Positions 1,546 through 26,679 of a DNA stretch of 26,679 nucleotides are shown here, one piece after another. Position 1 is the stretch's first letter. Each line of letters opens with the position of its first letter. A program made the translations under genes and the position numbers. The notes beneath the pieces were generated by a model. It had not been told where the DNA came from. It did no database searches and saw only the letters and a program-made list of their open reading frames with translations. Source of the stretch: Macrostomum lignano (Eukaryota); assembly GCA_002269645.1 (NCBI GenBank), contig NIVC01005084.1, positions 1 through 26,679 on the forward strand, given 5' to 3'.

Positions 1546-2016
1546 TTTTCGACCTCAAAAAACACGTTTTTTGTACTTTTACCTGTAAAGTGAAAGTACA
1601 ATCAAAAAATCCATTTCGGATCATTTTAGCGTTCGAATGCCCGCGTCTGCTGAGCCCACTCGCTAAGCGCTGCCATATTCTCAATCCTTATTTTTTGAGA
1701 TCAAATTTTTTGACAATGTCGAAAAAACGCAGTTTTTGGTTGCCATGGCAACCAAAACGCGTCGCCATGACAACCAAACACTGCGGATCTGTTAGCCCTA
1801 GGTCTTTGACGCATTTTGGCAAAAACCGTTTGTAAATCGGTCGTACCGTTTTTTATGCGCAGCGTTTCAAAGTTGAAAAACGTCATTTTTAGTGTGTCAC
1901 ATCTGTTGCACATCTTATCAGGGACGATTTCGCAAAAGTAAGCAGTATAGAAAAAAATTCTCGCTTCGCTCGCATTTTTTCCTATACTACTTACTGGCTC
2001 ATCGTCCCACAACTAG
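1..2016. mobile_element. Non-autonomous DNA/rolling-circle (Helitron/Helentron-like) element; right end at 2016
   Basis: Imperfect subterminal inverted repeat GGGACGAT..AGTAAGCAGTATAG (1921-1950) vs CTATACTACTTACT..ATCGTCCC (1982-2008) around a TCGCTTCGCTCGC loop, then terminal CTAG (2013-2016) abutting the Gypsy pol. No transposase seen; family assignment is inference. Confidence 0.4.
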
Positions 2017-5000
2017 ACATAAAATTAAATTAGATATAGCAGGTAAATCTCTAGAATTTAGCGATAGAATTCCGCTCGTGACATCGAGTGACGAAACGCG
2101 TTGCGTCCTACTGCAAGTAGTCAAGAAAGTATCTATATCACCGATGAGCGAAATTTATGTCAAGGCTAAATGTAAAGATATTCCAGAGACTGCAGAACTC
2201 GGCTTCATTTTAGGCCGCAGTCAAATCAGTGAGAAAGATGAGCCATTAGTAGCTAAAGCTATTACTAGATTAGACGAATTCGGTGAAACTTACGTTAGAT
2301 TAATGAACCTGACAGAAGAGGCACAGACAATTCATAAGGATGAGGTAGTTGCGCAGTATCAACCGCTGAAGGAAGACGTAGAACTTTTCGCAATGTCAGA
2401 AACTGATTTAGAAGTAGGTGCGCAGAAGCAACCAAAGGAGGCAGTCACGGTGCAAGAAGCAGACAGGCTTAGAGAACAATTCCGCTTAAACGAGACCGAT
2501 TTAAGTGAAGCTCAGAAGAGAAAAGTAATTGAATTATTACATCGTTACCAGAATATTGTTTCGAAGGACCAGTGGGACATCGGTAAAACCCAGATGGGCG
2601 AATTCAAGATTGAGACTACCGATGAAATTCCAGTCAGAATTCCCCTGCGCAAGCAAAGCCCAGAGCAACGAGAATTTGTTAGCGGGCATGTGCAGCAGCT
2701 GTTAGAGCACGATTTGATTGAGCCTTCAGAATCTGAGTGGAGCTGCCCTATTGTTCTCGCCCGGAAGAAGTCCGGAGAATTCAGATCTTGCTGTGACTTC
2801 AGACAGTTAAATAATAAGACCAAGACAGTTTTCCGCTACCGTTAATTCAAGAATCGCTAGAATCCCTGGCAGGCAACATGTACTTTAGCACCCTCGAAAT
2901 AGTCGGCGCTTATTGGTCAGTGAAGGCCAGAGAGGCTGACCGCGAGAAATTTGCGTTTCGAACCCATGATAGCCTGTTTCAGTGGAAAGTTTTGCCTTTC
3001 GGAGTCACGAACGGACCCGCTTGCTTTCAACGCATACCGTAATGCAGAAGATCTTAGGTGATTATACTTACAAGTTCGCCTTACTCTACCTAGATGATGT
3101 AATCTGCACAGGCAAGAATTTCGAAGAAATGCTCACTAATTTAGAACTAATATTTTCTCGGTTAGCAGAAGCTGGAATGAAAATCAAGCCAGAGAGGACC
3201 TTTCTGTTTCGGAAAGAAGTCACCTTCCTAGGGCACACTGTCTGCCAGCACGGTATTTATACTAGCAAAGATAAGATAGAAAAAGTCCAGACATGGCCCC
3301 GGCCAGAGAATATCTCTGAGCTGCGTGGATTCTTAGGCTTAGCAGGTTACTATCGCAGATTTATTAAGGCCTTTGCGCGTATAAGTGAGCCTTTAAATAA
3401 TTAAACTAGAAAAGATGTCAAGTATAAGTGGAATGACAGTTGCCTGAGGGCATTTGATTTATTAAAGCAGAAGCTAGTGAATGCACCTGTGCTGAGCTAC
3501 CCCAGGTTCGATAGCGACGCGGGACCGTTTATTCTCGATGTCGACGCGTGTGACGTAGCTATAGGTGGAAATTTATTACAAGAGCAAGATGGGGAAGAGA
3601 AAGTGATAGCCTACGCTTCCCATCCGTTAAACGAGCATCAGTTGAATTACTGCACTACGATGAAGGAAATGTTTGCGCTAATATATTTCTTAGAACATTA
3701 CCGGCCTTATCTGGTAGGCCGTCGTTTCAAGGTCAGGACAGACCACGCGGCCCTCCAATGGCTACGCAAGTGCCATGGTGCAAAAGGCATGTTAGGCAGA
3801 TAGGAATATGATTCTTGAGCAGTTTGATCAATTTGAAGTAATCTCGAGAATGGAAGAATATGACTTTGCAATTCAATACCGCCAAAGGATAGCCCATGGT
3901 AACGCAGACGCCCTGAGTCGCAGACCTCAGCGGGATGGTCCCCCGAAACGCTACCATGAGGAATGCCCCACGTGCAGTGCGACAAAGACTGCCACAGTCC
4001 ACTGCGGTGCAATAAATATCGATACGCCAGCGGGAATTGTAGAACTGCAGGAGAGCCAGCCAGAGTTGCTGCTGCTCAAGCAAAAGCTCAGGCAGGGAGA
4101 GCCCTGTCCGCCCAAGAACGAATGGGTTGGAATGAGTCGCAGTTATAAGTCATTATTAAGCGATTATGAGCAGCTAACAGTGAAGAATAACATAATTCAT
4201 AGAAACTGGACAGATTCAGAAGGCCGAAAATTTGAGCAGATTATATTGCAAGAGAATCCAGCCGTAGAGCAACAGCTGTTCCGGGCTTATCACGACCAGA
4301 TGGCCCACGGCGGTATTTCCAAGACAAAAGATTTGATTCGACAGAGATTCTGGTGGCCAAATTATTCAACAAACTTAGATAGATATATCAAGACTTGTAC
4401 TGAGTGCCAGACAAGGAGGAAATACGGGCCGAAGCCAAGAGCGCCTTTAGAACCAGAAGTAAGCAGTTACATGGGCGAAAAAGTCCATATAGATTTCGCC
4501 GGTCCGTTTAACGCCACGGCACGGGAGAACAAGTACCTCCTGCTGATGGTCGATCACTTTACGGGTTGGCTGGAGGTCAAGGCACTTAGAGATTGTACAG
4601 CTGAGAGTACAGCTTGGGCCCTGTACACAGAGTGGATCACTCGGCATGGTGCCCCTGAAGCATTCATATCAGACAGAGGAACATCATTTACGGCAGGATT
4701 AGTGAAGTCGCTAACCGAAAATTTCTGAATAGATCTGCGCCATACTACTAGCTACCATCCGCAGGCTAACGGTCGCTGCGAGCGCATGGTCAGAGTAGTG
4801 AAAGATGGAATCAGGTTAGCTCAGAGCGAACTTAGTTTGGCATGGGATGAGGTGCTTCCGCACGCTGTGATGGTTCAGCGAAGCACAGTCAGTGAAAGCA
4901 ATAAATTTAGCCCGCTCGAATTAGTCTATGGCCGAAAGATGCGGCTACCGGTTGATGCTGAGCTTGGATTGCCTTCGCCGGAGCGCAAGACCCGTGATAA

Positions 5001-5691
5001 GCATTTGCACGATCTGTATAAAAAGTGCATGGAATCGTATCGAATTGCCAGAGAAAAACAACAAATATCAGTCAGGCGGCAGAAGTCTAATTATGACGCT
5101 TAAGTATTCCAGCAGTATTATCAGCCAGGTGACCTGGTCTGGATAGAGAATACGCAGAACTGTTACGATACGAATAGGAAATGGGTAGGTCCGTACAGAG
5201 TGCTTGAAGTTAGAAATAATGGAAAAAAATTAAAGATTGAGCCCGGTCCGAAGGTTGACCGCATAGAGCAACCTGTCAGAATTCATGACGTAGTGACGGT
5301 AGACAGAACAAAGCCATGCTACTTGTCGGAAGAAAATTTGCGCCAGTATCGAGAAGAAGAAGCTGGAAGTGCTAGCGATGACGGCTCGGAGGAGTCAGAA
5401 AGAGTCCAAGTGGAGATTCGGAGGCCTGAGAGAATTAGATTTTTGCAACGTGAGAGAGCTCACGAAGCTACTGGAAGTAATGTGAATAGAACAGTGGAAA
5501 GCACTCAGACAGCGGCCAATGCCAACCAACAGGCCAGGCAGAGTCCTGTGCGCACTCCGCCGAATTTAATGCATCTGAGCCCCGTGCACAGTACGCCGCC
5601 GCAGCGGGCAGGCACGAGTAACATTAGCTGGATACCGCGGCTGCGAAACCGCGCGGCGATTAGACCCCCAGAGCGATATGGTCATCATTGA
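2017..5691 (+). pseudogene. pol: Decayed Ty3/Gypsy pol (end of protease/linker, RT, RNase H, integrase with GPY/F motif); 5' end (LTR, gag, protease core) missing
   Basis: RT: IEPSESEWSCPIVLARKK..FRSCCDFRQLN, FQWKVLPFG, LLYLDDVI. RNase H: FILDVDACDVAIGGNLLQ, NYCTTMKE, TDHAALQW, HGNADALSR. IN: HDQMAHGG..CTECQ zinc finger, HIDF/SDRG/CERM DDE triad, KWVGPYRV. Lesions: frameshifts at ~2830 and ~3035; in-frame stops at 3402-3404, 3801-3803, 4726-4728, 5101-5103; 37-nt extra segment at 3804-3840. Confidence 0.95.
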
Positions 5692-10000: not shown

Positions 10001-10056
10001 GATTTTTTTTATTAAAACACCTTAAAAACACAAAATGCTAAACACAAAAAAGCACA

Positions 10057-10395
10057 ATGTCAAACATTAAAGAGCCATCATGTCAAACATAAAAGAGCCA
10101 CCATGTCAAACATAAAAGGACCACCATGTCGAACATTAAAGAGCCACCATGTCAAACATTAAAGAGCCATCATGTCGAACATTAAAGAGCCACCATGTCA
10201 AACACTAAAGAGCCACTATGTTAAACATTAAAGAGCCACCATGTCGAACAATAAAGAGCCACCATGTCAAACATTAAAGAGCCACCATGTCAAACACTAA
10301 AGAGCCACTATGTCAAACATAAAAGAGCCACCATGTCAAGCATTAAAGAGCCACTATGTCAAACATAAAAGAGCCACCAGGTCAAACATAAAAGA
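10057..10395. repeat. 23-bp minisatellite (ATGTCAAACATTAAAGAGCCACC), ~14-15 copies
   Basis: Directly visible tandem units with 1-3 variants each. Confidence 0.95.
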
Positions 10396-10654: not shown

Positions 10655-10785
10655 ATTTATTTTAAAAGCTATTACTTTTAAAGAAAAGAGATTGACGCAT
10701 TGATTTGTAAGCATTAAGTTGTTCAGAAACTGGCGCTACTTTCCGAGTCACTCATTCTTGCTTATTAACGGCTTTTAAAATAAAT
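10655..10785. repeat. 15-bp perfect inverted repeat bracketing 131 bp (possible MITE remnant) abutting the LTR
   Basis: ATTTATTTTAAAAGC (10655-10669) is the reverse complement of GCTTTTAAAATAAAT (10771-10785). AT-rich, so chance cannot be excluded. Confidence 0.4.
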
Positions 10786-13001
10786 GATGTAACCGCCCTC
10801 GTCGCCTGTCCGCTCCGTAGAGAGACGAACGCATGGCTAGAGGGGGCAATGACCGTAGGCTGCCTATGACCGGGCAATGACCTGACGGACCTCCAGCACC
10901 AGACTGTCCCGCCCACATGATTAGTAGCTTTGGTAGCGCTTCGTGACCAGAGGGCCAAGGACCCACATGGACCCCACCTGTAGCCAAGGTGCAATAGTTG
11001 GTCACTCGGTCATGGTATGACCGAGTGGCTGCCACCACTCTATGTGACCTGGCGCACCTGGATCTTTCTACCAGACCTCTCGAGGCTAGAGCCCCGCCTG
11101 GATTGGTTACCAGGGGATTTAGGCTAACAGGGGAGACGCATGCAGCCGAGTACAGGGACTCTGCTTGGGGCATGATCGGGAACTCTGGGCTCAATCCTGG
11201 AGGATTTCTCAGCAGGGGATCCTTTGTGGCTGTGAGCGAGGCTGACTTGCGACTTTGATTACTAAGAGTAGTATGAGGCGAACATGTACTGTCTACAGTT
11301 TAGATTGCTCAGGGCGAAGGGACGCGTTAGCATGGGGTTGCAACCTTCCTACTGCCATTCTGTGCCAAGACTCGCTAATCCCTCTACTGCACGCACACGC
11401 GGCCCCGCAGCACGCACTCACAGGCGGGCTTTGCACGGGGAGAGGCCATTAGCTTACCCAAACTTCCTTATGCTTTGCCACCCCGGGAGAAAGGCTTAGC
11501 AAGCCATGAGTGAAATGATGGTGAAAGATTGAATAATGATGAAGTTAGTTAATAGTTAATAATTAGGCCCTTAGGCAAATAAGCAGGCAATTAGGCGGCT
11601 TCACTATTGAGTAAAATACAGCAAAAGATACGGTATCACAATTGGCTCAGCTCTCTAATCAGACAATGGAAAATAGGCAAACCCCGGATAAGCAAAGGCA
11701 ATTAGAGCCCAAATTAGTAGTAGGAACTTACCGGCAGCTGCACAGAGAGAGAGAGAGGCGGAGTGACCGAGGGCGGCTGTAGGCTGCAGTCAGGCAGACG
11801 GTGAAGCGGCGATGCGCTGGAGCGACGAGGCGCTGATGTAGATCAGGCGATGCTGATGATGCTGGGCGGTATCAGACCGCTGGCCGATAGGCGAGCTCAC
11901 TTGGGGAGCTAAGGATAACTTGGCGGTAACAGACCGCGGACCGGCAGGGATTCGTCTTATAGACGAATGGGTCAGAACTCAATCTGACAGCAAGTCCAAA
12001 GAAGGACGAGGAGAGGAACAGAGATAAACTCAGTTGAGTATTCTCATGCCGAAATCGCTTCCTTTTATAGACCTCACAGCCGCCTCCTCAAGGTCGTTAC
12101 CATGGCTCCCTCTCTCTGATTGGCTGCCGGCAGAATGACGTCAGAATGAGTCATGATGAGAAGCATGAGACCGGCATAGCAACATGAGAAATCGGGAAAT
12201 TGCGCAATCCGGAGGTGGGGTGGGGGATAATTGGCGCAGCGGGTGGTCGCGAAAGTGTTGCGCAAGCAAACATTGAGAACAATAGGGCTGGGGTCGAGAA
12301 CAAAGGAATTGGAAATCGGGGATAATTGGGGAAAACTGAGAACAATGGAAAAGTAAACATTGGAGAAAAGGTGATAATTAGGTGCGAAAACGAGAACAAA
12401 AGAAAGAGAAAATCGGAGAAAATGTGATAATTGGTGGGGGTCGAGAGAACAAAAGAAGCAAAAACGAGAACAATAGAAGCGGAGGTGGGGTGGGTGTCAC
12501 ATGAGAAATTTGGGAAGGAGAACAATAGCGTGAGAAAAGGTTGCGCAAGAGAGGGGGATGAGTCATCGATGAGTCACCGAGGGGGAGAAGGGGTCACACG
12601 ACTTGCGTCACCGTTTGGGAGTTTGAGAGGGGATGGGGAGACGGTGAGCACACAAAGTACTGTAAGTAGACACAGGGAAAGAGGGGACAGCGCAGGAAAA
12701 GAGTGCAGAGGGAGACAAAAAAAGGGAGGAGGTAGAGAAAGTACAGGAAGAATAGGGCGGGAACAGAAGAGATAGGGTAGAGGGGGAGGTACAGAAAGGG
12801 GTAGGGGCTCCGGAAAGGCAGGTGTGGCGGCAGGAGAGACGGGACCAAGGCAGCAGGAGGGGTGCAGCAGAGCGGGAGTCTCCAGGCCCGGTCGGAGACC
12901 TGGCCGAGTCTCGACAGCTCTGTGCAGAGGGTGCACGGGATAGGAGGCACTTTCAAAAAAGTTCCCATGCCCTATCCCGCGACCAGAGCGTGGTTACATC
13001 A
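10785..13001 (-). repeat. 3' LTR (2217 bp)
   Basis: Starts TGATGTAACC and ends GGTTACATCA (perfect 10-bp terminal inverted repeat); differs from the 5' LTR by about 5 substitutions and 5 indels (1,7,1,1,1 nt) by eye. Confidence 0.97.
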
Positions 13002-13018
13002 CACCCCCACTGCCTTTT
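13002..13018 (-). other. Polypurine tract (PPT)
   Basis: Minus strand AAAAGGCAGTGGGGGTG immediately precedes the 3' LTR. Confidence 0.7.
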
Positions 13019-13606: not shown

Positions 13607-13719
13607 TATAAAAGGCGCCACTGATAACGGGAGCCGGCTGCCTGCAACCTACACGGAGTCGCAGTTTCCAACCAAGGCACTCAGCGCGATTTTCCAAACT
13701 ATACAACTACTCGGTAAGT
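13607..13719 (+). promoter_or_regulatory. Antisense promoter (TATA box), short non-coding exon and 5' splice site inside the LTR element
   Basis: GTATAAAAGG with TATAAAA at 13607-13613 after a GC-rich stretch; TCG|GTAAGT donor at 13714-13719. Confidence 0.55.
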
Positions 13720-14140
13720 CCCATCACCAACCTGATTTCCTTTCGCCTATACGTTAAACGAAATCTACCCACTCGCCATGCCTTTCGTTTTAAACTGAGC
13801 CAATTGCAGTAATAATATATGGCCTTTCTTACGGTAAAAGTAGTGAGCAGCCAACACAGAGCCATTTTTAGGAATTTTTAGGATAATGACACAACAATGA
13901 CTCGTATATTGGTTATTAAAGTTTAAAAATGAATATTATGGAAGAACCGAATATTAATAGGATAATATGAATAGAAGAGGGATTTGGGAGATTAGACTCC
14001 GGAGGATAAATGATGATGCGGCCCAACTCCCTTCGATTTCTTCCTTCAACGCCACGCGCACGCAGTTCTCATCCATGCCTCCGAGACCCTCATAAACTTA
14101 ACAGCCGAAAGAATTCGAAAGAGGAATTAATCATTAATTT

Positions 14141-14510
14141 GACTGCCACCAGTTTGATGTACTATTATAAAAGAGAAAGGGGAACCTACCACCATCTTGG
14201 CGCATTACCAAAGAAAAGAAAAGGAGGATCAGCCACCATTTTGAGAGAGGTTGCTAGGGAAAACTGCCACCAATTGTACATTAACAGGGAAGAGAAAGAG
14301 GGAACCCGTCACCACTTAGAGTGGATTGCCCGGGGAAACTGCCACCATTTGCCCTTCTACCAGAGGAGAGGAAGACGAAAAACTGCCATCACTTAGAGGT
14401 GTATCATTAAAAGAAGGCGGGTAAGAAGGCTACCACTACTTGATCACCTAGAGCTCAAGGGAGGAGAGGGAATGAAGAAAGGAAGAAACCCCCAGGAAGG
14501 CCACTACCAC
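14141..14510. repeat. Degenerate array (~9 units, 35-45 nt spacing) of a CTGCCACCA-core motif resembling the element's own PBS/LTR junction
   Basis: Cores near 14143, 14187, 14230, 14264, 14307, 14339, 14383, 14430, 14503 in a purine-rich background. CTGCCACCAGTTTGATGTA (14143) vs the true junction CTGCCACCATTTTGATGTA (19902-19920). Confidence 0.75.
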
Positions 14511-14600
14511 ACGCCATAAAGTTAAAATCCCCATCTATCTACATCCTAATACCCGGCTAGTTCCCTACTTCTATTTCATCCCTTAAATTCTCATTTTCAG

Positions 14601-15007
14601 GATTCCGGCCGCTAGTAGCCGAGCCCATCCTTGAAGAGGAGTCCGACTACGAAGCGCCCGAAGACAGCCATTCAGAGCCGGACGCCCCCTCTGATTCTGG
14701 GCCGGCTGCGCCATCTGGTGGCATAGGCGCCGCGGCTCCCGGGCCATGCGACCGCCGGGCCGCCAGCGAACCAGCGTCCGGGGCCGGTTGGCATCCGGTA
14801 CCACCGCCGTTGTCAGCCCGAGCGCACGCTCCGCCGCCGGTCGCCGCGGTGACGCCCGTGGCTGCCGCTCCACAGCCCTTGCCAACCCCTGTGGTGGAGA
14901 CCGACGGCTCCTGGCATTTGGTCGTGCTGTCGACGGCCCTAATAGCCGGTCTCACAATGCACTGGCTACTGCTCTTGGAGCTATTTCTGCGGCTTCCCAA
15001 CTGCTGA
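14601..15007 (+). CDS. Antisense exon encoding an acidic/Pro/Ala-rich polypeptide with a C-terminal hydrophobic (putative TM) segment
   Basis: Strong acceptor TTCTCATTTTCAG (AG 14599-14600); frame from 14603 reads FRPLVAEPILEEESDYEAPEDSHSEPD..PLPTPVVETDGSWHLVVLSTALIAGLTMHWLLLLELFLRLPNC*. No ATG identified for this frame; an overlapping 104-aa ORF starts at ATG 14746. Confidence 0.55.
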
Positions 15008-15593
15008 TGCTGGTGGTTCTTAATGCTTACTTACTAATTCTGAACTATCTGTCCCCATAACTTGACTTTAATTACTTACCTGACTTTACATTGACTAAAC
15101 CACTGGCCTACTCTAAACTAATTGCTGCCCCATTTGCCTGATAAACTTAATTACATTGAATGCCCCCCCTATTGCCTCATCGAAACCAATTAAAAGTTTC
15201 CCAAAATCGGACTTTCACAAAGTGTGAACAAACACACGAAATCAGACCTAAAGGTGCTAATTTCCTACGGTCCCAGACTTCCATTGTTCCCAGAAAATCT
15301 TAAACAGCGGGGCAGGACCTCCTGTGGAGCAGACCCATAGAAATTTTACTAGTTTCCAAGTTAATATTTACTGATAGGGAATTAACGCATACTGTACGGG
15401 CCTAATTTTCGAGCTAAAATCTTAGATATTTAAACAACACCAACGAGCACGAGGTCACAACATAAATTCGAGTAATAGAGGGCATACGTAAATACGCGAA
15501 AAGCGGTCTCCAACGGGGCAACACGAGCAAAATTTCGACACGCGAATCGGGGGGGGGAATTAAGCAATCACTGGCTAGCTACCGATCTGTTAC

Positions 15594-16112
15594 TCAGCGG
15601 GGGTCGAATGGGAGACTCACACCTAGCAAGTAAACCTTTTCTGTTCGATAGTCTATGATAGCATGCGTACTGGCTAGAAAAGCACTACCCAGGAGGGAAA
15701 CTGCTGCTGAATTGCCAACGACCAGAAAGAGGATTCTCACCTCTTCTAGCCCAATAACTGCTGTGAGGGTGGCCTGGCCTAGCATCTCTAATTCATTGCC
15801 CGTGTAGGACACGGCCTTCACACATGGGGGCTCCAGGGCCTCCACACTCTGTCCGGTAATTTTAGTAAAGTCTTTGACTGTTAGCAAAGACAGCGCACTG
15901 CCCCCATCTACCAGGAGGCGGGTGGGAACATTCTCAATTGGCAACTCTACAACAATATCTCTCCCGCGTTGTCCTCTAGCTGGTCTTGGCTGATAGAAAT
16001 CGGGTACCTTCTCAAATCTAAACTTCTTGCTGGGCGGACGTGGCAGGTTAAGCTGGGCCCTAGAGAGGGAACGGGGCTGAGTTCGGGCCGGGCCATTCAG
16101 CCCTCCCACGGG
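15594..16112 (-). CDS. pro: Retropepsin-type aspartic protease, in the -1 frame relative to the gag C-terminus; pol ends here
   Basis: IENVPTRLLVDGGSALSLL (active-site position D-G-G), KAVSYTGNELEMLG flap, LLGSAFL motif, IIDYRTEKVYLLG end. One extra C in the C5 run would extend it into a linker remnant (SVELASDCLIPP..SRVEI) that then decays. Confidence 0.85.
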   Translation of the reverse strand, partial: PVGGLNGPARTQPRSLSRAQLNLPRPPSKKFRFEKVPDFYQPRPARGQRGRDIVVELPIENVPTRLLVDGGSALSLLTVKDFTKITGQSVEALEPPCVKAVSYTGNELEMLGQATLTAVIGLEEVRILFLVVGNSAAVSLLGSAFLASTHAIIDYRTEKVYLLGVSLPFDPR

Positions 16113-16118
16113 TTTCCC
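16056..16118 (-). other. Putative programmed -1 ribosomal frameshift signal (G_GGA_AAC plus stem-loop/pseudoknot)
   Basis: Slippery heptamer at 16118-16112, in register with the ..PGSGNPWEG* frame; 8-nt spacer; 7-bp stem GGGCTGA/TCAGCCC; loop GGCCC can pair with downstream GGGCC; the -1 frame is the protease. Confidence 0.75.
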
Positions 16119-16236
16119 GAACCCGGGGGCTCTTCAGGCGTGGAAGGAGGAGGCATCAGAGCTTGCGCGCGCAGCTGGGCGAGCCTCTCCTGCCTCTCCC
16201 TGGTAGCCTCGTCTAACATATCTCTGCCCCACTCCT

Positions 16237-17541
16237 CTAAATCTTGCCTATGGCGATCAGTGGCGCACGAAGCTGCAATTGCTGCTGCTGCACACCCGGC
16301 GCCGGCGGCGTGGGCGCCTCCTGAATTGCAAGCGGCGGGGGCTGGGGTTGGCGCCAGTTCCTACTGCTATTAGAGCCGCCCTGCCCCTGCCTCCAGTTCC
16401 TGTTGGGAGTGGCGGGGCGAGGGGGCCTCATCTGCTGGGGCAGCTGGGCAACAGACTCTGCTGTCGCCTTCATAGTTTCATTGAGCTGCACCAGCTGGTT
16501 GCGCAGATCTTTTTGCGTTTGCTCTAGCGCGCCCAACCTCTCTTGCATCTCTGATAGGCCGTCACCGTCCTCCTCCGTCTCGTCAGCTTCCTGGTTCACC
16601 ATCCTGACCCACTTGCGAGGGGGCCTGGGTGGCTGCTGAGGTTGCAGACGGACTTCGGTGCGGGACTCAGACCTGGGCGGGCCACTACTGTCCCATTTCC
16701 CGGCTAAGTCTGCGGCTTCTAACAGGGCTTGCTGCTGTTCTAACACCTGCTCAATTGTCTGCCAGCGACGGCTCAACAGATCTTGTCTGACCTGGCGGGG
16801 GAGCTTAGCGTGTTCCAAGTAGGTGTACACGATTTCTTGTTCTCTCTGCTCACCCTGAATCTGAGGAAACATGGCCGTTATCTGAGATCTTATCATAGCA
16901 GCAAAAGCACTATGTGATTGGCCGGGTTTCTGGCTCAGATTCTTCAGCTTATTTCTCTTAGCCAGATCAGTGTTGGCCTCGCCCAACTGCTCTCCTAATC
17001 TAGATACGAACTGCTCAAAGGGCAATTGCCCGTCCAATCCTAAGGCTAAGTTCTGAAATTCACCTGGGAGGTGCGAGATGAGCACCTGCTTCCTAGCCTG
17101 ATCTCCTACAGTTCTCTCCGCGTCCAGCTTGTAGATCATTCTCTCTACCCATTGCACAAAACAGTGTTCGCCGGGAGAGAACTTTTCTACGTAGATTTTC
17201 GGCCTCTGGGCGTCTTGGCCCATGTTTAGCTGGTTAAACGCATTGGCTATAGCGGCAACTAAGTCTCCTAGCTGCGGGACTGCCTGAGGAGGATTCTGGG
17301 CTGCGTCCGGGGGAGCAGCGGCGGCTGCTGCGCCACCCTGATTGGGAGCGGGAGCTGCTACTCCTTCATCTGGTTCCTCAACTACTACTGCTTCTGGAGG
17401 CTGAGGGACCTGGTTACCAGCGGCTGCGGCCATTGCGGCTGCGGGGGCGGCAACTGCTGGGGTGTCAGCGGCCGAGGGTGGTTGACCAGGGGCGTCTGCG
17501 CACACAGCTTCTACGACCCTATCTCCACGCGCCCGTGACAT
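16237..17541 (-). CDS. gag: Gypsy-type Gag (capsid), 434 aa as sequenced; true C-terminus probably continues in the -1 frame to 16097
   Basis: ATG 17541 (MSRARGD); Ala/Pro-rich N-terminus; capsid-like PKIYVEKFSPG..FVQWVERM; MHR-like LKNLSQKPGQSHSAFAAMIRSQI; coiled coil; no CCHC knuckle. The adjacent frame DRHRQDLEEWGRDMLDEATRERQERLAQLRAQ..SGNPWEG* looks like the real tail. Confidence 0.9.
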   Translation of the reverse strand: MSRARGDRVVEAVCADAPGQPPSAADTPAVAAPAAAMAAAAGNQVPQPPEAVVVEEPDEGVAAPAPNQGGAAAAAAPPDAAQNPPQAVPQLGDLVAAIANAFNQLNMGQDAQRPKIYVEKFSPGEHCFVQWVERMIYKLDAERTVGDQARKQVLISHLPGEFQNLALGLDGQLPFEQFVSRLGEQLGEANTDLAKRNKLKNLSQKPGQSHSAFAAMIRSQITAMFPQIQGEQREQEIVYTYLEHAKLPRQVRQDLLSRRWQTIEQVLEQQQALLEAADLAGKWDSSGPPRSESRTEVRLQPQQPPRPPRKWVRMVNQEADETEEDGDGLSEMQERLGALEQTQKDLRNQLVQLNETMKATAESVAQLPQQMRPPRPATPNRNWRQGQGGSNSSRNWRQPQPPPLAIQEAPTPPAPGVQQQQLQLRAPLIAIGKI

Positions 17542-17556
17542 GTGAATGCCGGATAG

Positions 17557-17600
17557 CTGGGGGAGTACCCACCACCGGGAAGGAAAAGAAAAGAAAACCG
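17557..17600 (-). promoter_or_regulatory. 3' splice site 15 nt upstream of the gag ATG
   Basis: Minus strand TTTTCTTTTCTTTTCCTTCCCGGTGGTGGGTACTCCCCCAG|CTATCCGGCATTCACATG. Confidence 0.6.
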
Positions 17601-19892
17601 GGGCAACTACAGGTAAAGACCGAAAAGTTGATCCGAAACACACAAACACACTCACACACACACAAACACAGACAAAACCCACATACTTGCGGCGTCGAAG
17701 AAAACAAATTGAAAAACGGGTGGCTCCACATAATTCCATTTAGGCAGTCCTAACGGCTTCACTCGGCAAAGCACACTGACTCAAACTGCGGCTACCACTA
17801 CCAGTTGTCTATGGCACATCCTGACAGGGAAAAATTGGCTATTCAGAGAGACTTGACCTTCATTTTGCGGCCATGCTAGGGAACCCAAATGCCGACCGTA
17901 AACGGACTTACGGCACCTGTACAAATTCTCCCCTAGGGTTGCGCGCCGGACCCCATTTCCTTAAGAAAGCTACTACGAAGAAGCGTTGGCGCCTGGACCC
18001 AAAAACCCAAGTGGCGGGAGCAATCCCCATGGAGGTCCTCCCACTTTACTGCCCTTGCACAGCCGGAAAACCGTCGGAGTCCAGTGGGGCTTCCACCTCA
18101 GGACTACCAATCTTGTACACGCAGCTTCACAAAAGGCGGGAATCCAGCTCCCCTACGTCTAGCAGAATCCACAAAAACCAAGACCTCCCCTTCTGTTCAG
18201 AGCGAAGGCGCGCAGCGGGAGTCCAGACTAAACTGTCCCCGAAGTTTTCAGGTTAGGCGGATTACAAGCCTGAAACTCTCGCCCGCTTTCCTAGGATAAA
18301 CAGACCTAAGTGAGTATCTTCCTGAAATGCTTGCCCCTCCGATACTCCACCTTTGCTGCAGCTCGAAATAGCATACTTGGGACCTTTATCTGATGGCGGA
18401 GAAAGTCCTACAGTTGTCAGCCTCTCCACTTTACTGTACTTGAACGCCCGGTTCTACCAGGAGACAGCGGTACCTCCATCTAGGTTATTCCAAGTTGCCA
18501 GAGACGTCAACCCGTCTTATTGACCTTGCGGGGCACTGGGGTGGCACTCTATGTACCGGGGCTTTACATTAGGGGACTGCATGCAACCCTGCGTCTAAGC
18601 GCTTAGTGGGCTGCAGTGGCCAGAGGGGAAAAGAGTTGCGCAATAGCGCCTTCCTGGGCCAGGCTGACAAGTCGGGCAGGAGCGCCGTTCTACCGGGTCG
18701 GGCTGATTGGCACACCCACCTCCCCTATCAGACTGACAGCAGGGGGGAGGAATTACTAAAGGAGGAGAATGCAGCAGGAAACATTACGAGATCACTGGGG
18801 GCCACCAGACTTCCAGTACACCATTCCAATACTCACTGAACTCCACTATCAATAGGATACTATGGGATCTACTATTTCCAGCCACTGCACCAGCCCAAAT
18901 GCAACCAAAGCAGTTACTACCGGGTCTGCAATACAGTGGGGAGAGTCAGCAGACACGTTGGGATCGAATCCCAGCCATGAAGGCACCAGGGGTTACCGCA
19001 GAATTCAGGTCCGGGCTGATCGCAGGTATTCCATAGGAGGTGACACTTTTTTTAGCCCGAGATTTTTGAGTCACACTGATACCCTACAGAGATACAATCA
19101 CACCGCTATTCCCATTCCTGCGAGACTTTGGTATCCCCCAATGTTTCCAAGGCCATGACTACTGCTTCCCTTACTATGCATATATAGCGAGTTCCCCATA
19201 GCCCTTGATAGCTGTTCATTCTAATGGACAAACAAAACACGCTCCGGTCTCTACGCATTTCTAGGATTAACTGAGCGATCAGGGAGAGCGACTGTTACAC
19301 TCCCCCGAGTAAAAGAAAGAGGTAGGACAAAGGAAAGAAATGCTTCGCTTCCAGCTTCCCTGTGCTTGCGTGATGAGGCTTCCGTACCTGGCTGGCTGTC
19401 CACCTCAACACTCACACAGTTCTGCTGTAGGCTAGGCGAGAGAAAGAAAGGGAGGGGAAATAAAGCATATTACCATGAAATAGAAAGTGAGTCCGGAAAA
19501 TTCACTTTCGCAGTTCTTCACACACTCCGTTACCAGGTAGCTATTCTGATTGTAATCAAATCCGCTCGTCTACCACTTCACACTTTCTAGCGCTGAAACT
19601 GATCGGCTAAATTAATTTTAAATTGAATCAGGGGCTTTTGGCGAATGAATGAATTTGGAAATTTCGAATGAATTGAACGAATTCGCAGCCCGAAAAATTT
19701 GAAAAGTTACATTAATATTTTTGGATTTTGTTGCCTCACGCCATGGGAGAAGAGAATGACGATTGGCGATTTTTACGATTGGTAGATTTAGACATGGCAC
19801 TCTTTGCGCTTCGGCCACCATTCTGAGGGATGCCACAGGTGCGCTTGTCACATCTAAACCACCAGTCCGAAACTCAGCGCTGTTTGCACCAG

Positions 19893-19910
19893 ATCCCACC
19901 GCTGCCACCA
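19893..19910 (-). other. Primer binding site complementary to the tRNA-Leu 3' end
   Basis: Minus strand TGGTGGCAGCGGTGGGAT, 3 nt from the 5' LTR end; complement of the eukaryotic tRNA-Leu 3' end ATCCCACCGCTGCCA-CCA. Confidence 0.92.
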
Positions 19911-19913
19911 TTT

Positions 19914-22119
19914 TGATGTAACCGCCCTTGTCGCCTGTCCGCTCCGTAGAGAGACGAACGCATGGCTAGAGGGGCAATGACCGTAGGCTGCCTATGACCG
20001 GGCAATGACCTGACGGACCTCCAGCACCAGACTGTCCCGCCCACATGATTAGTAGCTTTGGTAGCGCTTCGTGACCAGAGGGCCAAGGACCCACATGGAC
20101 CCCACCTGTAGCCAAGGTGCAATAGTTGGTCACTCGGTCATGGTATGACCGAGTGGCTGCCACCACTCTATGTGACCTGGCGCACCTGGATCTTTCTACC
20201 AGACCTCTCGAGGCTAGAGCCCCGCCTGGATTGGTTACCAGGGGATTTAGGCTAACAGGGGAGACGCATGCAGCCGAGTACAGGGACTCTGCTTGGGGCA
20301 TGATCGGGAACTCTGGGCTCAATCCTGGAGGATTTCTCAGCAGGGGATCCTTTGTGGCTGTGAGCGAGGCTGACTTGCGACTTTGATTACTAAGAGTAGT
20401 ATGAGGCGAACATGTACTGTCTACAGTTTAGATTGCGAAGGGACGCGTTAGCATGGGGTTGCAACCTTCCTACTGCCATTCTGTGCCAAGACTCGCTAAT
20501 CCCTCTACTGCACGCACACGCGGCCCCGCAGCACGCACTCACAGGCGGGCTTTGCACGGGGAGAGGCCATTAGCTTACCCAAACTTCCTTATGCTTTGCC
20601 ACCCCGGGAGAAAGGCTTAGCAAGCCATGAGTGAAATGATGGTGAAAGATTGAATAATGATGAAGTTAGTTAATAGTTAATAATTAGGCCCTTAGGCAAA
20701 TAAGCAGGCAATTAGGCGGCTTCACTATTGAGTAAAATACAGCAAAAGATACGGTATCACAATTGGCTCAGCTCTCTAATCAGACAATGGAAAATAGGCA
20801 AACCCCGGATAAGCAAAGGCAATTAGAGCACAAATTAGTAGCAGGAACTTACCGGCAGCTGCACAGAGAGAGAGAGAGGCGGAGTGACCGAGGGCGGCTG
20901 TAGGCTGCAGTCAGGCAGACGGTGAAGCGGCGATGCGCTGGAGCGACGAGGCGCTGATGTAGATCAGGCGATGCTGATGATGCTGGGCGGTATCAGACCG
21001 CTGGCCGATAGGCGAGCTCACTTGGGGAGCTAAGGATAACTTGGCGGTAACAGACCGCGGACCGGCAGGGATTCGTCTTATAGACGAATGGGTCAGAACT
21101 CAATCTGACAGCAAGTCCAAAGAAGGACGAGGAGAGGAACAGAGATAAACTCAGTTGAGTATTCTCATGCCGAAATCGCTTCCTTTTATAGACCTCACAG
21201 CCGCCTCCTCAAGGTCGTTACCATGGCTCCCTCTCTCTGATTGGCTGCCGGCAGAATGACGTCAGAATGAGTCATGATGAGAAGCATGAGACCGGCATAG
21301 CAACATGAGAAATCGGGAAATTGCGCAATCCGGAGGTGGGGTGGGGGATAATTGGCGCAGCGGGTGGTCGCGAAAGTGTTGCGCAAGCAAACATTGAGAA
21401 CAATAGGGCTGGGGTCGAGAACAAAGGAATTGGAAATCGGGGATAATTGGGGAAAACTGAGAACAATGGAAAAGTAAACATTGGAGAAAAGGTGATAATT
21501 AGGTGCGAAAACGAGAACAAAAGAAAGAGAAAATCGGAGAAAATGTGATAATTGGTGGGGTCGAGAGAACAAAAGAAGCAAAAACGAGAACAATAGAAGC
21601 GGAGGTGGGGTGGGTGTCACATGAGAAATTTGGGAAGGAGAACAATAGCGTGAGAAAAGGTTGCGCAAGAGAGGGGGATGAGTCATCGATGAGTCACCGA
21701 GGGGGAGAAGGGGTCACACGACTTGCGTCACCGTTTGGGAGTTTGAGAGGGGATGGGGAGACGGTGAGCACACAAAGTACTGTAAGTAGACACAGGGAAA
21801 GAGGGGACAGCGCAGGAAAAGAGTGCAGAGGGAGACAAAAAAAAGGAGGAGGTAGAGAAAGTACAGGAAGAATAGGGCGGGAACAGAAGAGATAGGGTAG
21901 AGGGGGAGGTACAGAAAGGGGTAGGGGCTCCGGAAAGGCAGGTGTGGCGGCAGAGAGACGGGACCAAGGCAGCAGGAGGGTGCAGCAGAGCGGGAGTCTC
22001 CAGGCCCGGTCGGAGACCTGGCCGAGTCTCGACAGCTCTGTGCAGAGGGTGCACGGGATAGGAGGCACTTTCGAAAAAGTTCCCATGCCCTATCCCGCGA
22101 CCAGAGCGTGGTTACATCA
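19914..22119 (-). repeat. 5' LTR (2206 bp)
   Basis: Near-identical copy of 10785-13001 with the same TGATGTAACC..GGTTACATCA ends. Confidence 0.97.
21184..21695 (-). promoter_or_regulatory. LTR U3 promoter: TATA, CCAAT, CRE, AP-1 x3, C/EBP x3, repeated GATAA and AACAAT motifs (same set at 12063-12575 in the 3' LTR)
   Basis: Minus-strand TATAAAA at 21190-21184; ATTGG ~50 nt upstream; TGACGTCA 21257; TGAGTCA 21268, 21679, 21690; ATTGCGCAAT 21320 plus two more TTGCGCAA; degenerate GAGAACAA and GATAATTGG repeats. Confidence 0.75.
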
Positions 22120-22480
22120 AAAGTTCCAATTGCACCTAACAGTAAGTGAACTTTAATTTCTACCCCCACGCAGCACTTTGGGCATGTCCTGTTCTTGTAA
22201 GGAATCTTTGGTCTCACAGTCCTCATAAGTGTTTCGCAGGCTGGTTATGGATTGCTAATCTAACCTGTGACAGGGTGCGCTTGAATTCTTGATTAGAGAT
22301 CTCCTGTACATAATTTTCGGTTGAGTAGCAGCATTGGAAGCTTTGTATTGGAGAAGCGTGTCTTTCAAGGGTCATTAACCTTGGAGACGCCCTCGTGATG
22401 ACGCCAAAACCAATGATCGCCATCACTTGCTTTAGTCTTAGCATACTGTAAGTAGTGCCATTGTTACAAATAGCCATGTT
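22120..22480 (-). pseudogene. Degenerate 3' end of a non-LTR retrotransposon ORF2 (L2/Crack/CR1-like C-terminal Cys/His region), cut by the LTR
   Basis: Joining two frames gives KRTLSQVRLAIHN..RTVRPKIPYKNRTCPKCCVGVEIKVHLLL, resembling the R..LTK.RLS.H.L.IETGRY.RPKIP...R.C..C...VEDE.HFLL motif of such LINEs. Confidence 0.55.
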
Positions 22481-22706: not shown

Positions 22707-22876
22707 GCAATCGACCAATAAGCAGACTGTTCGAATTCGAGACTATTTGGCACAATAGGTACGAGGTAAATTGGTAAATTGCAATCATCAAATCGTTGCT
22801 TATGCTTGGTCTATATGTTCCCGTAAGCCAATCGAACTTACCCGACACTCGGGCATCTCCCGACTGGTATCCGCAG

Positions 22877-23215
22877 GCACAACCTTGGCCTGTCGTGGTA
22901 CCGCGGCCAGATGCCGCTCAGCCGACCCGGCGACGTCACCTTGGAGAAGTCACCAGCCTATTTCGTCACCGAGGCTGCCCCAGCTCGGGTGTGGCGCATG
23001 AACACCAGCATCCAGCTAATCCTCATTCTGCGCGATCCCGTGGACCGCGTTGTCAGCGACTACGCGCAGCATGTGCACCGGCGAGTCTCTAAAGAGTTGC
23101 CGCCCAAGCCGATCGAAAGTCTCGTGCTGACGCGCAACGGCGATGGCCGGGTGAATCCGAACGCCAAGATGGTGCAAACATCGCTCTATCACAGACATCT
23201 GCGGCGGTGGCTCAG
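22877..23215 (+). CDS. HS3ST: Heparan sulfate glucosamine 3-O-sulfotransferase, penultimate coding exon
   Basis: CCGCAG| acceptor and |GTGAGT donor, both phase 2; GLSWYRGQMPLSRPGDVTLEKSPAYF and 3'-phosphate-binding ILRDPVDRVVSDY motifs. The upstream PAPS 5'PSB exon was not found in the window. Confidence 0.93.
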
Positions 23216-23520
23216 GTGAGTAAAATCGAGTGGCTTATTGGTTACCCGTCTGACTCGTATTCGTGTAACATGTGCGAGTTCAAGACTTAGCGCAATTGGC
23301 TCCGCCACCACTTGTCTCGTGGCTCGTGGGTTCCTTCACAAGTTACTGAATCTTAATCACATTGCTTAACCAGTTCGTAACTCCTGAACCGTGTGACTTA
23401 AACAACTTTGACGCGTTCTTCTCATGAGTTTCGACTTATCGCCAACTTTATTTGGGTTTCTGAACGCTTTGAAAAAGTTTTTCTTAACAGTAAAGCCAAT
23501 TGGTTTCTCATACCGCTAAG

Positions 23521-23884
23521 GTACTTCAAGCCCGACCAGATCCACCTGGTGGATGGCGATCGGCTGGTCAGTCAACCGCACTCGGAGCTGAAGCAGGTCG
23601 AGGACTTTCTCGGCTTAAAGCGGCACATTCGTCCGGAGCATTTTGTCTTCAACGCCACCAAAGGCTTCTACTGTCTGGCTCCGTCTGTTAGCAGCGGCCG
23701 AGGTAAAAAACGCAGACAGCGCTGCCTCGGCTCCGAGAAAGGCCGCCGACACCCGAGCGTGGCTAATTCCACTCTGACGGCGCTGCGCCACTTTTTTGCT
23801 GGACACGACGAACGCCTCGTCCAGCTGACTGGGCGCACTTTTGATTGGATGCGACGGAACGCCCAGCAGTTTGGAGAAGAGTAA
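23521..23884 (+). CDS. HS3ST: Heparan sulfate 3-O-sulfotransferase, last coding exon
   Basis: TAAG| acceptor, phase-compatible with the upstream exon (..WLR|YFKPDQIHLVDGDRL); FNATKGFYCL..CLGSEKGRRHP..LRHFF..TGRTFDW, characteristic of the HS3ST C-terminus. Confidence 0.93.
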
Positions 23885-24197: not shown

Positions 24198-24568
24198 GCG
24201 CAGATAAGCGAAATCTCACACTAAACCATTGACGTCTGCACCAGTGCAGATAAGCGAAATCTCACACTAAACCATTGACGTCTGCACCAGTGCAGATAAG
24301 CGAAATCTCACACTAAAACATTGACGTCTGCACCAGTGCAGATAAGCGAAATCTCACACTAAACCATAGACATCTGCACCAGTGCAGATAAGCGAAATCT
24401 CACACTAAACCATAGACATCTGCACCAGTGCAGATAAGCGAAATCCCACACTAAACCATAGACATCTGCACCAGTGCAGAAAAGCGAAATCTCACACTAA
24501 ACCATAGACATCTGCACCAGTGCAGATAAGCGAAATCCCACACTAAACCATAGTCATCTGCACCAGTG
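24198..24568. repeat. 46-bp minisatellite, 8 copies, with self-complementary unit ends
   Basis: Unit GTGCAGATAAGCGAAATCTCACACTAAACCATAGACATCTGCACCA starting at 24198, 24244, 24290, 24336, 24382, 24428, 24474, 24520. Confidence 0.95.
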
Positions 24569-26385: not shown

Positions 26386-26679
26386 CCAGAATGAGTGTAT
26401 GCGGCACCAAAATGAGTGCCTGAATGCGACACCAAAATGAGTGCCTGAATGCGACACCAAAATGAGTGCCTGAATGCGGCACCAAAATGAGTGCCTGAAT
26501 GCGACACCAAAATGAGTGCCTGAATGAGTGCCTGAATGCAGAGCCAAAATGAGTGCCTGAATGCAGAGCCAAAATGAGTGCCTGAATGCATAGCCAAAAT
26601 GAGTGCCTGAATGCAGAGCCAAATTGAGTGCCTGAATGAATGAAGAGCCAAAATGAGTGCCTGAATGCAGAGCCAAAAT
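26386..26679. repeat. 25-bp minisatellite (CCAAAATGAGTGCCTGAATGCGACA / ..GCAGAG), ~11 copies, running off the window
   Basis: Directly visible; period 25 (26407, 26432, 26457...). Confidence 0.95.

Follow-up and report, generated by a model that had tools for sequence, protein, structure and literature searches.

The closest described systems are found among Ty3/gypsy LTR retrotransposons. In Ty3 and Drosophila gypsy, whose primer-binding site (PBS) is bipartite, extra tRNA-complementary sequence is situated near the 3' end of the genomic RNA, and the available parts of the relevant articles describe these 3' sites as pairing with the T, D or anticodon arms (PMC5371799, PMC4974528, PMC1635307); since the sites occupy different arms, one tRNA can bridge both RNA ends. 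Plant elements of the Retand type carry family-specific arrays of at least three tandem units between the coding region and the 3' LTR, accompanied by an antisense gene that is mostly TRP28, and they do so also in non-autonomous members; the available text of this source does not mention PBS-derived units and calls the origin and function of gypsy 3' tandem arrays unknown (PMC11963269). Drosophila gypsy furthermore contains the Su(Hw) insulator, described in the accessible part of its source as 12 clustered sites (PMC9917439). PBS-derived sites are also present in mammalian host transcripts, where they are complementary to the tRNA 3' end, lie away from the priming site and are mostly long and single.

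Here we describe a window of 26,679 nucleotides from Macrostomum lignano (GCA_002269645.1, contig NIVC01005084.1), in which a Ty3/gypsy element carries, near the 3' end of its genomic RNA, an array of short cores matching nucleotides (nt) 1-9 of its own PBS, hereafter half-PBS (Table 1). The position of this extra tRNA-complementary sequence is shared with Ty3 and Drosophila gypsy. Unlike in those elements, as far as the available parts of the articles describe them, the eight to nine cores and the PBS are complementary to one and the same acceptor end; the different-arm feature that defines the bipartite PBS is thus lacking, and the bridging of both RNA ends by one tRNA is impossible for half-PBS cores. 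The analogy with the Ty3 bipartite PBS, drawn in a preliminary description of the locus, therefore fails on this point. With the Retand-type arrays the locus has in common the placement of its eight to nine tandem units between the coding region and the 3' LTR, together with an antisense gene; it differs in belonging to an animal element, in its PBS-derived cores and in an antisense protein unassigned to any known family. As in the Su(Hw) insulator, about ten short conserved sites are clustered in a gypsy element, whereas the insulator sites are protein-bound DNA unrelated to the PBS and the present ones derive from it. In contrast to the mammalian transcript sites, those found here are 9 nt long, repeated and located in the element itself. 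The array is hence a member of the gypsy 3'-internal tandem arrays, with a unit of known source.

Our searches of the open-licence literature turned up neither a PBS-derived array nor a half-PBS in U5. The words PBS, tRNA, antisense and tandem are missing from the accessible text of PMC12801592, and four motifs of the element were absent from five of its supplements; this study, as far as its available text goes, mined elements by reverse transcriptase (RT), so that Pol-less families would be missed.

Table 1. Features of the LTR element and its array in the window (core matches refer to PBS nt 1-9)
Feature	Position	Strand	Basis or remark
5' LTR, TG...CA ends, 9-nt terminal inverted repeat	19914..22119	-	LTR comparison
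3' LTR	10785..13001	-	against 5' LTR: 2202 matches, 5 mismatches, 12 gap columns
True PBS, 18 nt, starts 3 nt after 5' LTR	19893..19910	-	junction at 19902
Polypurine-tract-like stretch before 3' LTR, short and interrupted	13002..13018	-	sequence
gag, 436 aa, PNMA-like Ty3/gypsy capsid	16237..17547	-	homologues and protein-atlas match
Aspartic-protease-like frame, ends in stop	15594..16133	-	PF13975 only at E 0.021
Whole array, eight clear and one decayed half-PBS cores	14143..14511	-	match to PBS nt 1-9
Unit 1: LTR end, 3-nt spacer, PBS nt 1-9, 18/19	14143..14161	-	
Core 2, 8/9, change retains G-U pair	14186..14194	-	
Core 3, 8/9	14230..14238	-	
Core 4, 9/9	14264..14272	-	
Core 5, 7/9	14306..14314	-	
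Core 6, 9/9	14339..14347	-	
Core 7, 8/9	14383..14391	-	
Core 8, 7/9	14430..14438	-	
Decayed ninth core	near 14503	-	
Single exact half-PBS in LTR, 255 nt upstream of PBS	20157..20165 (also 11029-11037)	-	
Half-PBS 8/9 in leader, 90 nt downstream of PBS	19812..19820	-	
TATA box (13607) and consensus splice donor (13714) of likely antisense unit	13607..13719	+	
Last exon of likely antisense gene, strong acceptor at 14600	14601..15007	+	
Site where other copies carry about 1.8 kb extra; window copy without it	13963..13966		

As judged from the copy in the window, which lacks about 1.8 kb present in other copies, the element is a Pol-less gag-pro Ty3/gypsy LTR retrotransposon of Macrostomum lignano. 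Its Gag has four distant homologues, all with PNMA/Retrotrans_gag domains, and scores 0.93 against a PNMA cluster of the protein atlas, and the protease-like frame gave a tblastn match inside one gypsy locus (E 4e-5). According to the list of open reading frames and Pfam, no RT, RNase H or integrase follows the protease-like frame, nor does any further long sense ORF. The three UniRef gene models covering part of the element all belong to Macrostomum lignano; word-indexed searches with Gag (near lengths) and the protease (longer) returned no matches, and neither an RNA family nor a tRNA gene was found inside the element. Contigs of the sequencing runs representing other copies depart from the window sequence at 19914, the LTR/internal border, among the matches listed. 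A target-site duplication is absent, since the flanks at 10780-10784 and 22120-22124 differ though the LTRs are >99% alike; the copy in the window may be recombinant or misjoined, which leaves the family call unchanged.

Several other features of the window were recorded. A decayed gypsy pol at 1877-5691 (+), with RT, RNase H, integrase and several stops and frameshifts, is a separate element, no link to the Pol-less one being seen. Host minisatellites occupy 10053-10395 (23 nt), 24200-24568 (46 nt) and 26399-26679 (25 nt), the first containing a 7-nt word common to the core in an unrelated context, and two frames at about 22800-23884 (+) resemble by eye what we take to be a heparan sulfate sulfotransferase gene. 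Within gag, at 17414-17443, contigs from two runs end or branch exactly at 17443. The LTR contains a consensus donor at 20853 (-), and a pyrimidine tract accompanied by AG is found at about 17560 (-), immediately ahead of the gag start; together they suggest that a spliced gag mRNA without PBS might be formed, and no joint between the two was seen. Another strong sense donor is present at 15080 (-). Cover was absent at 17479-19888 in two runs guessed to be RNA, which proves nothing.

The array is real and far above chance. Within 14141-14510 the core occurs 3 times exactly, 6 times at <=1 mismatch and 9 times at <=2 mismatches, and these counts were reached by none of 2000 dinucleotide shuffles (maxima 1, 2 and 4), in the kind of motif-enrichment test that the preliminary description had proposed. 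When the best 370-nt window over the internal region was taken, 6 and 9 matches stood against maxima of 3 (<=1 mismatch) and 7 (<=2) in 200 shuffles. As one match with <=2 mismatches, at 14354, belongs to a spacer, eight cores plus the decayed one are in register. The start-to-start spacing of the eight clear cores is 43, 44, 34, 42, 33, 44 and 47 nt; units of 33-47 nt alternate between short and long, and their spacers of 24-38 nt are pyrimidine-rich (68% pyrimidine in sense). Moreover, a comparison of the array with 15,024 9-mers taken from elsewhere in the element gave PBS-core words as the top five matches, so that the link to the PBS is no after-the-fact choice.

About nine mimics of the junction between LTR end and PBS had been proposed at first sight. 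The number holds with eight cores and a decayed ninth, and so do the core in the other units (in register, 7/9 to 9/9) and the match of 14/15 in the third unit (14230); the likeness to the LTR end is confined to unit 1. The 19-mer at 14143 agrees with the junction at 19902 in 18/19 positions, as stated then, and is the best match to it in the window on either strand. Over the 10 nt preceding the PBS the units match at 9, 6, 7, 4, 4, 4, 6, 2 and 0 positions, which is clearly significant in unit 1 only (about 1e-4 for nine tries), and PBS nt 10-18 are matched at 0-3 of 9 positions in all units. Units 2 onward are half-PBS copies, not junction mimics. Tandem Repeats Finder at score 30 missed the array, its units being too diverged. 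By blastn the 3' region is no duplicate of leader or LTR (best E 0.22), and a tandem TRIM or LTR-PBS-PPT array was rejected, given units of 33-47 nt whose spacers are pyrimidine-rich in sense, with an LTR end in one unit only. The + strand ORF 14010-14396 that spans the array had no Pfam match and is unlikely to be coding, because other copies show 44-nt unit losses and a 1-nt insertion.

We tentatively prefer, judging from sequence, the explanation that a single seeding copy of the junction gave rise to the array as a tandem repeat, and that its cores may have been kept as weak docking sites for the primer-tRNA 3' end. The seeding is argued for by the agreement of unit 1 with the LTR end (9/10). 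The PBS may correspond to tRNA-Leu, by what we take to be the metazoan Leu AAG/TAG 3' end. The one place where a tRNA 3' end matching the PBS turned up was a tRNA-Met gene of a viral contig (2 of 3 loci), which shows a true tRNA 3'-end shape of the PBS and does not point to a particular isoacceptor. With the complement of the window's own PBS standing in for the tRNA 3' end, pairing was predicted at -39 kcal/mol for the PBS and at -10 to -17 kcal/mol for the eight clear cores as 9-mers; three of these pair at only about -10 kcal/mol, which counts against docking. The sense RNA of the array folds worse than 100 of 100 shuffles (z +3.06), and such an unstructured RNA counts for docking, whereas the exposure of the eight clear cores, at the 9th-49th percentile and so not above the regional median, counts against it. 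Transitions in the cores keep a G-U pair in 5 of 9 cases against 2 of 9 expected (P about 0.03, assessed by eye on units that are not independent).

A search for a dedicated intramolecular partner of the cores, made with no shuffle control, found none, and a folding-switch model is not supported, as neither such a partner nor an excess of PBS-complementary sequence was present. It should be added that a pairing of the five terminal LTR bases with PBS nt 1-5 around a three-base loop is predicted at 19906-19918 (-) (P about 0.9), and that unit 1 has the same pairing potential.

The history of the array was traced within the array itself and through other copies. Mean pairwise identity is 0.82 for cores, 0.49 and 0.42 for the near flanks and 0.24-0.30 farther out; the core value is inflated, as cores were chosen by their match, and the gap to the flanks is still large. 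Aligned spacers, at 0.53 against 0.45 when shuffled, are barely above shuffles, so the proposal that cores were kept over spacers is upheld within the array. Alternate units resemble one another in their spacers (z 4.0-4.8 for three of 28 pairs), which points to growth by tandem duplication. Copies were compared in 4 of the 20 sequencing runs containing the stretch, with all contigs searched and the best matches listed. Among these matches, the abundant form differs from the window in the array by three listed substitutions, one of which falls in a core (14391, in 1 of 4 runs), and by one insertion, and diverged low-depth contigs align across the array and drop whole units. Such skips run from 14175 to 14220 (44 nt) in 2 of 4 runs, and from 14245 to 14334 and from 14276 to 14399 in one run; the contig with the last of them has 57 differences over 14399-14882. 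Given these unit skips in diverged relatives, the array is older than the subfamily splits and its number of units is variable.

This variability would also be expected if a captured junction had merely been amplified to a minisatellite that is now decaying, changing in copy number and devoid of function. Tandem arrays and antisense ORFs commonly occupy the region from pol to the 3' LTR, according to the part of the source available (PMC11963269), the best junction match stands at one end of the array and the strongest decay at the other, and, as detailed below, other same-PBS elements have no array. We regard this reading as unlikely, since a relic should erode cores and spacers equally, and the persistence of cores at 0.82 beside near-random spacers is counted for their retention by selection; repair from tRNA would presumably restore 18 nt and not 9.

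The array is likely, from the sequence signals, to lie inside an intron of an antisense gene, a placement drawn from donor, acceptor, contig ends and gene models together. Among the matches listed, 2 of 4 runs contain contigs that break away from the window sequence precisely at 14600, and their loose ends are nearly identical. Of two gene models, both chimeric predictions, P0001 connects the antisense frame at 14600 with an upstream segment that the window lacks, and P0003 joins the 13714 donor to that frame. The joints listed for the four runs do not include one linking 13713 directly to 14601. The antisense frame has 134 codons, is acidic, Pro-rich and of low complexity with a hydrophobic C-terminal stretch, and had neither a Pfam match nor a usable protein-atlas match. 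At 13963-13966 contigs leave or enter in 4 of 4 runs, with lengths (1397 and 444 letters; 1707 in another run) that put the extra DNA at about 1.8 kb, and no contig among the matches listed for the four runs spans the junction present in the window; the + strand of the extra DNA begins with a CA-rich stretch resembling 17636-17683, which precedes gag. At 14709-14724 (-), within the antisense frame and 200 nt away from the array, the sequence fully agrees with what we take to be the CTCF consensus, probably by chance.

The location between antisense donor and acceptor also suits an explanation in which the cores are PBS-derived binding sites for a host factor or for Gag, on DNA or RNA, acting as insulator, enhancer, silencer decoy or antisense splicing signal. 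In the gypsy insulator the Su(Hw) sites are separated by spacers, and conserved cores in variable, biased spacers resemble this layout. Furthermore, the core flanks are partly conserved (AA before, TCCC-like after), a feature unneeded for tRNA pairing, and an exact core lies upstream of the PBS in one element of another PBS type, described below. We consider protein binding a doubtful explanation, though one of some weight; the presumed CTCF consensus matches no core, and the single copies outside the array have properties that argue against it.

For these copies, a metagenome scan for the same PBS, covering 15 of 64 parts, gave 101 LTR loci, with RT downstream of the PBS in 16. None has an array, although only 18 span 4.5 kb downstream and 8 have both LTRs; the maximum number of cores per 400 nt was 3 at <=1 mismatch (6 here) and 6 at <=2 (9 here). 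Upstream of the PBS, 200 nt were available in 86 loci, 79 after dereplication, and PBS nt 1-9 recurred there in the same sense in 22 of the 79, with about 1 expected and control maxima of 5 (shuffles) and 7 (permuted words). The reverse complement was found upstream in one locus and PBS nt 10-18 in one, and downstream half-PBS copies in 3 of 68 loci. After masking of the copies and stricter clustering, 18 of 72 LTR clusters, which may share descent, retained one upstream half-PBS 24-200 nt before the PBS; loci L060, L071, L085 and L092 (within L026-L126) are examples, in U5. Among the 18, nt 1-9 are matched in 17-18, nt 10 in 14 and nt 11 in 7, followed by background; one copy is a near-full PBS duplicate. 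They are not preceded by an LTR end of their own (4-6 of 18 per position). In two loci, L056 (820-905) and L087, the whole LTR-end/PBS junction is tandemly duplicated, 60 nt and 35 nt apart.

The upstream copies end at nt 9-11, where the acceptor stem stops, and their ratio of 22 sense to 1 antisense fits a role at the RNA level; both features speak against protein-bound sites, the strand bias being unlike most enhancer sites. A functionless relic would, moreover, leave the upstream half-PBS in these 18 clusters, with no own LTR end before it, unexplained. PBS-complementary sequence was not in excess in loci with an upstream copy (21 vs 57 loci, P 0.55), so that the partner of the half-PBS is probably in trans. 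A control set of nine loci was selected by what we take to be a Ser-type PBS motif: a copy of their own PBS upstream was present in 0 of 9, and the half-PBS core of the other type in 1 of 9; co-variation with PBS type did not show among these few loci. In the latter case, L127, the other type's core is present over 10 nt without mismatch in the LTR, 294 nt upstream (-294). Chance, an earlier change of primer or a motif independent of the PBS may lie behind this; the case hints at the last of them. In viral contigs the PBS junction pattern gave 0 loci, and 25 loci with a three-core pattern, mostly with multiples-of-three spacing or exact 16-nt repeats, were set aside as unrelated.

Docking of the primer tRNA is favoured because it would account for cores that start exactly at the CCA end and go no further than the acceptor stem, for the strand bias, and for the changes that tolerate G-U pairing. 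Unit 1 would have arisen by a template switch during reverse transcription, and slippage or further switches may have amplified it; the suggestion that the units are fossil template-switch products could fit unit 1 and does not fit the others. Gag-assisted annealing would load several tRNAs onto the genomic RNA, each held at about -10 to -17 kcal/mol, from which the 18-nt PBS (-39) would take them over, and the array would thereby raise the primer supply of an RNA dependent on borrowed RT. Where another same-PBS element has a lone half-PBS in U5, as a quarter of them do, this might represent the same signal in one copy. Counted against docking are the absence of arrays in the 101 same-PBS loci, the Ser-type result of 0 of 9 and, in the available part of the Ty1 literature, the dispensability of the acceptor-stem PBS for tRNA packaging (PMC4974528).

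Short PBSs are able to prime, being 8 nt in Ty3 and 10 nt in Ty1 (PMC4974528) and 11 nt in gypsy (PMC1635307) in the accessible parts of these articles; half-PBS cores could therefore misprime, a cost that also counts against docking. This ability would be exploited if the tRNA primed at unit 1, its LTR-end copy serving as an integrable end in rearranged or shortened progeny. In unit 1 the LTR end, the spacer and the 9-nt site are indeed in register; we nevertheless hold such priming to be highly improbable, as no joint of LTR end and array unit occurs among the five joints listed for the four runs, and the LTR end is present in one unit only.

An earlier suggestion that the array is a decoy sequestering 3' tRNA fragments (tRF-3s), which would otherwise block the PBS or silence the RNA, turned out weak. 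3'-tRFs repress LTR elements through the PBS, partly independently of the seed, as the available portion of PMC12853362 reports, and several spaced sites in unstructured RNA have the layout of a sponge. Pairing is, however, limited to the last 9 nt of the fragment, with the half on the seed side matched at 0-3 of 9 positions, the sites (-10 to -21) are far weaker than the PBS (-39), and the cited support is all mammalian, so that a decoy is very unlikely.

Beyond the docking reading for this array, the half-PBS may possibly, and with considerable doubt, be an unrecognised class of cis-element in animal Ty3/gypsy retrotransposons, 9-11 nt long and restricted to the acceptor end, present once in U5 of a quarter of same-PBS elements and multiplied here into a tRNA-collecting array that would outcompete a helper for primer and RT. 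The finding bears on how LTR elements choose and load their primer tRNA and on the competition between Pol-less elements and their helpers. With a repeat unit that has an identifiable source and partner, the role of 3' arrays becomes testable, in a worm for which transgenic tools exist. The single half-PBS recurring in U5 of unrelated elements may outweigh the array in importance.
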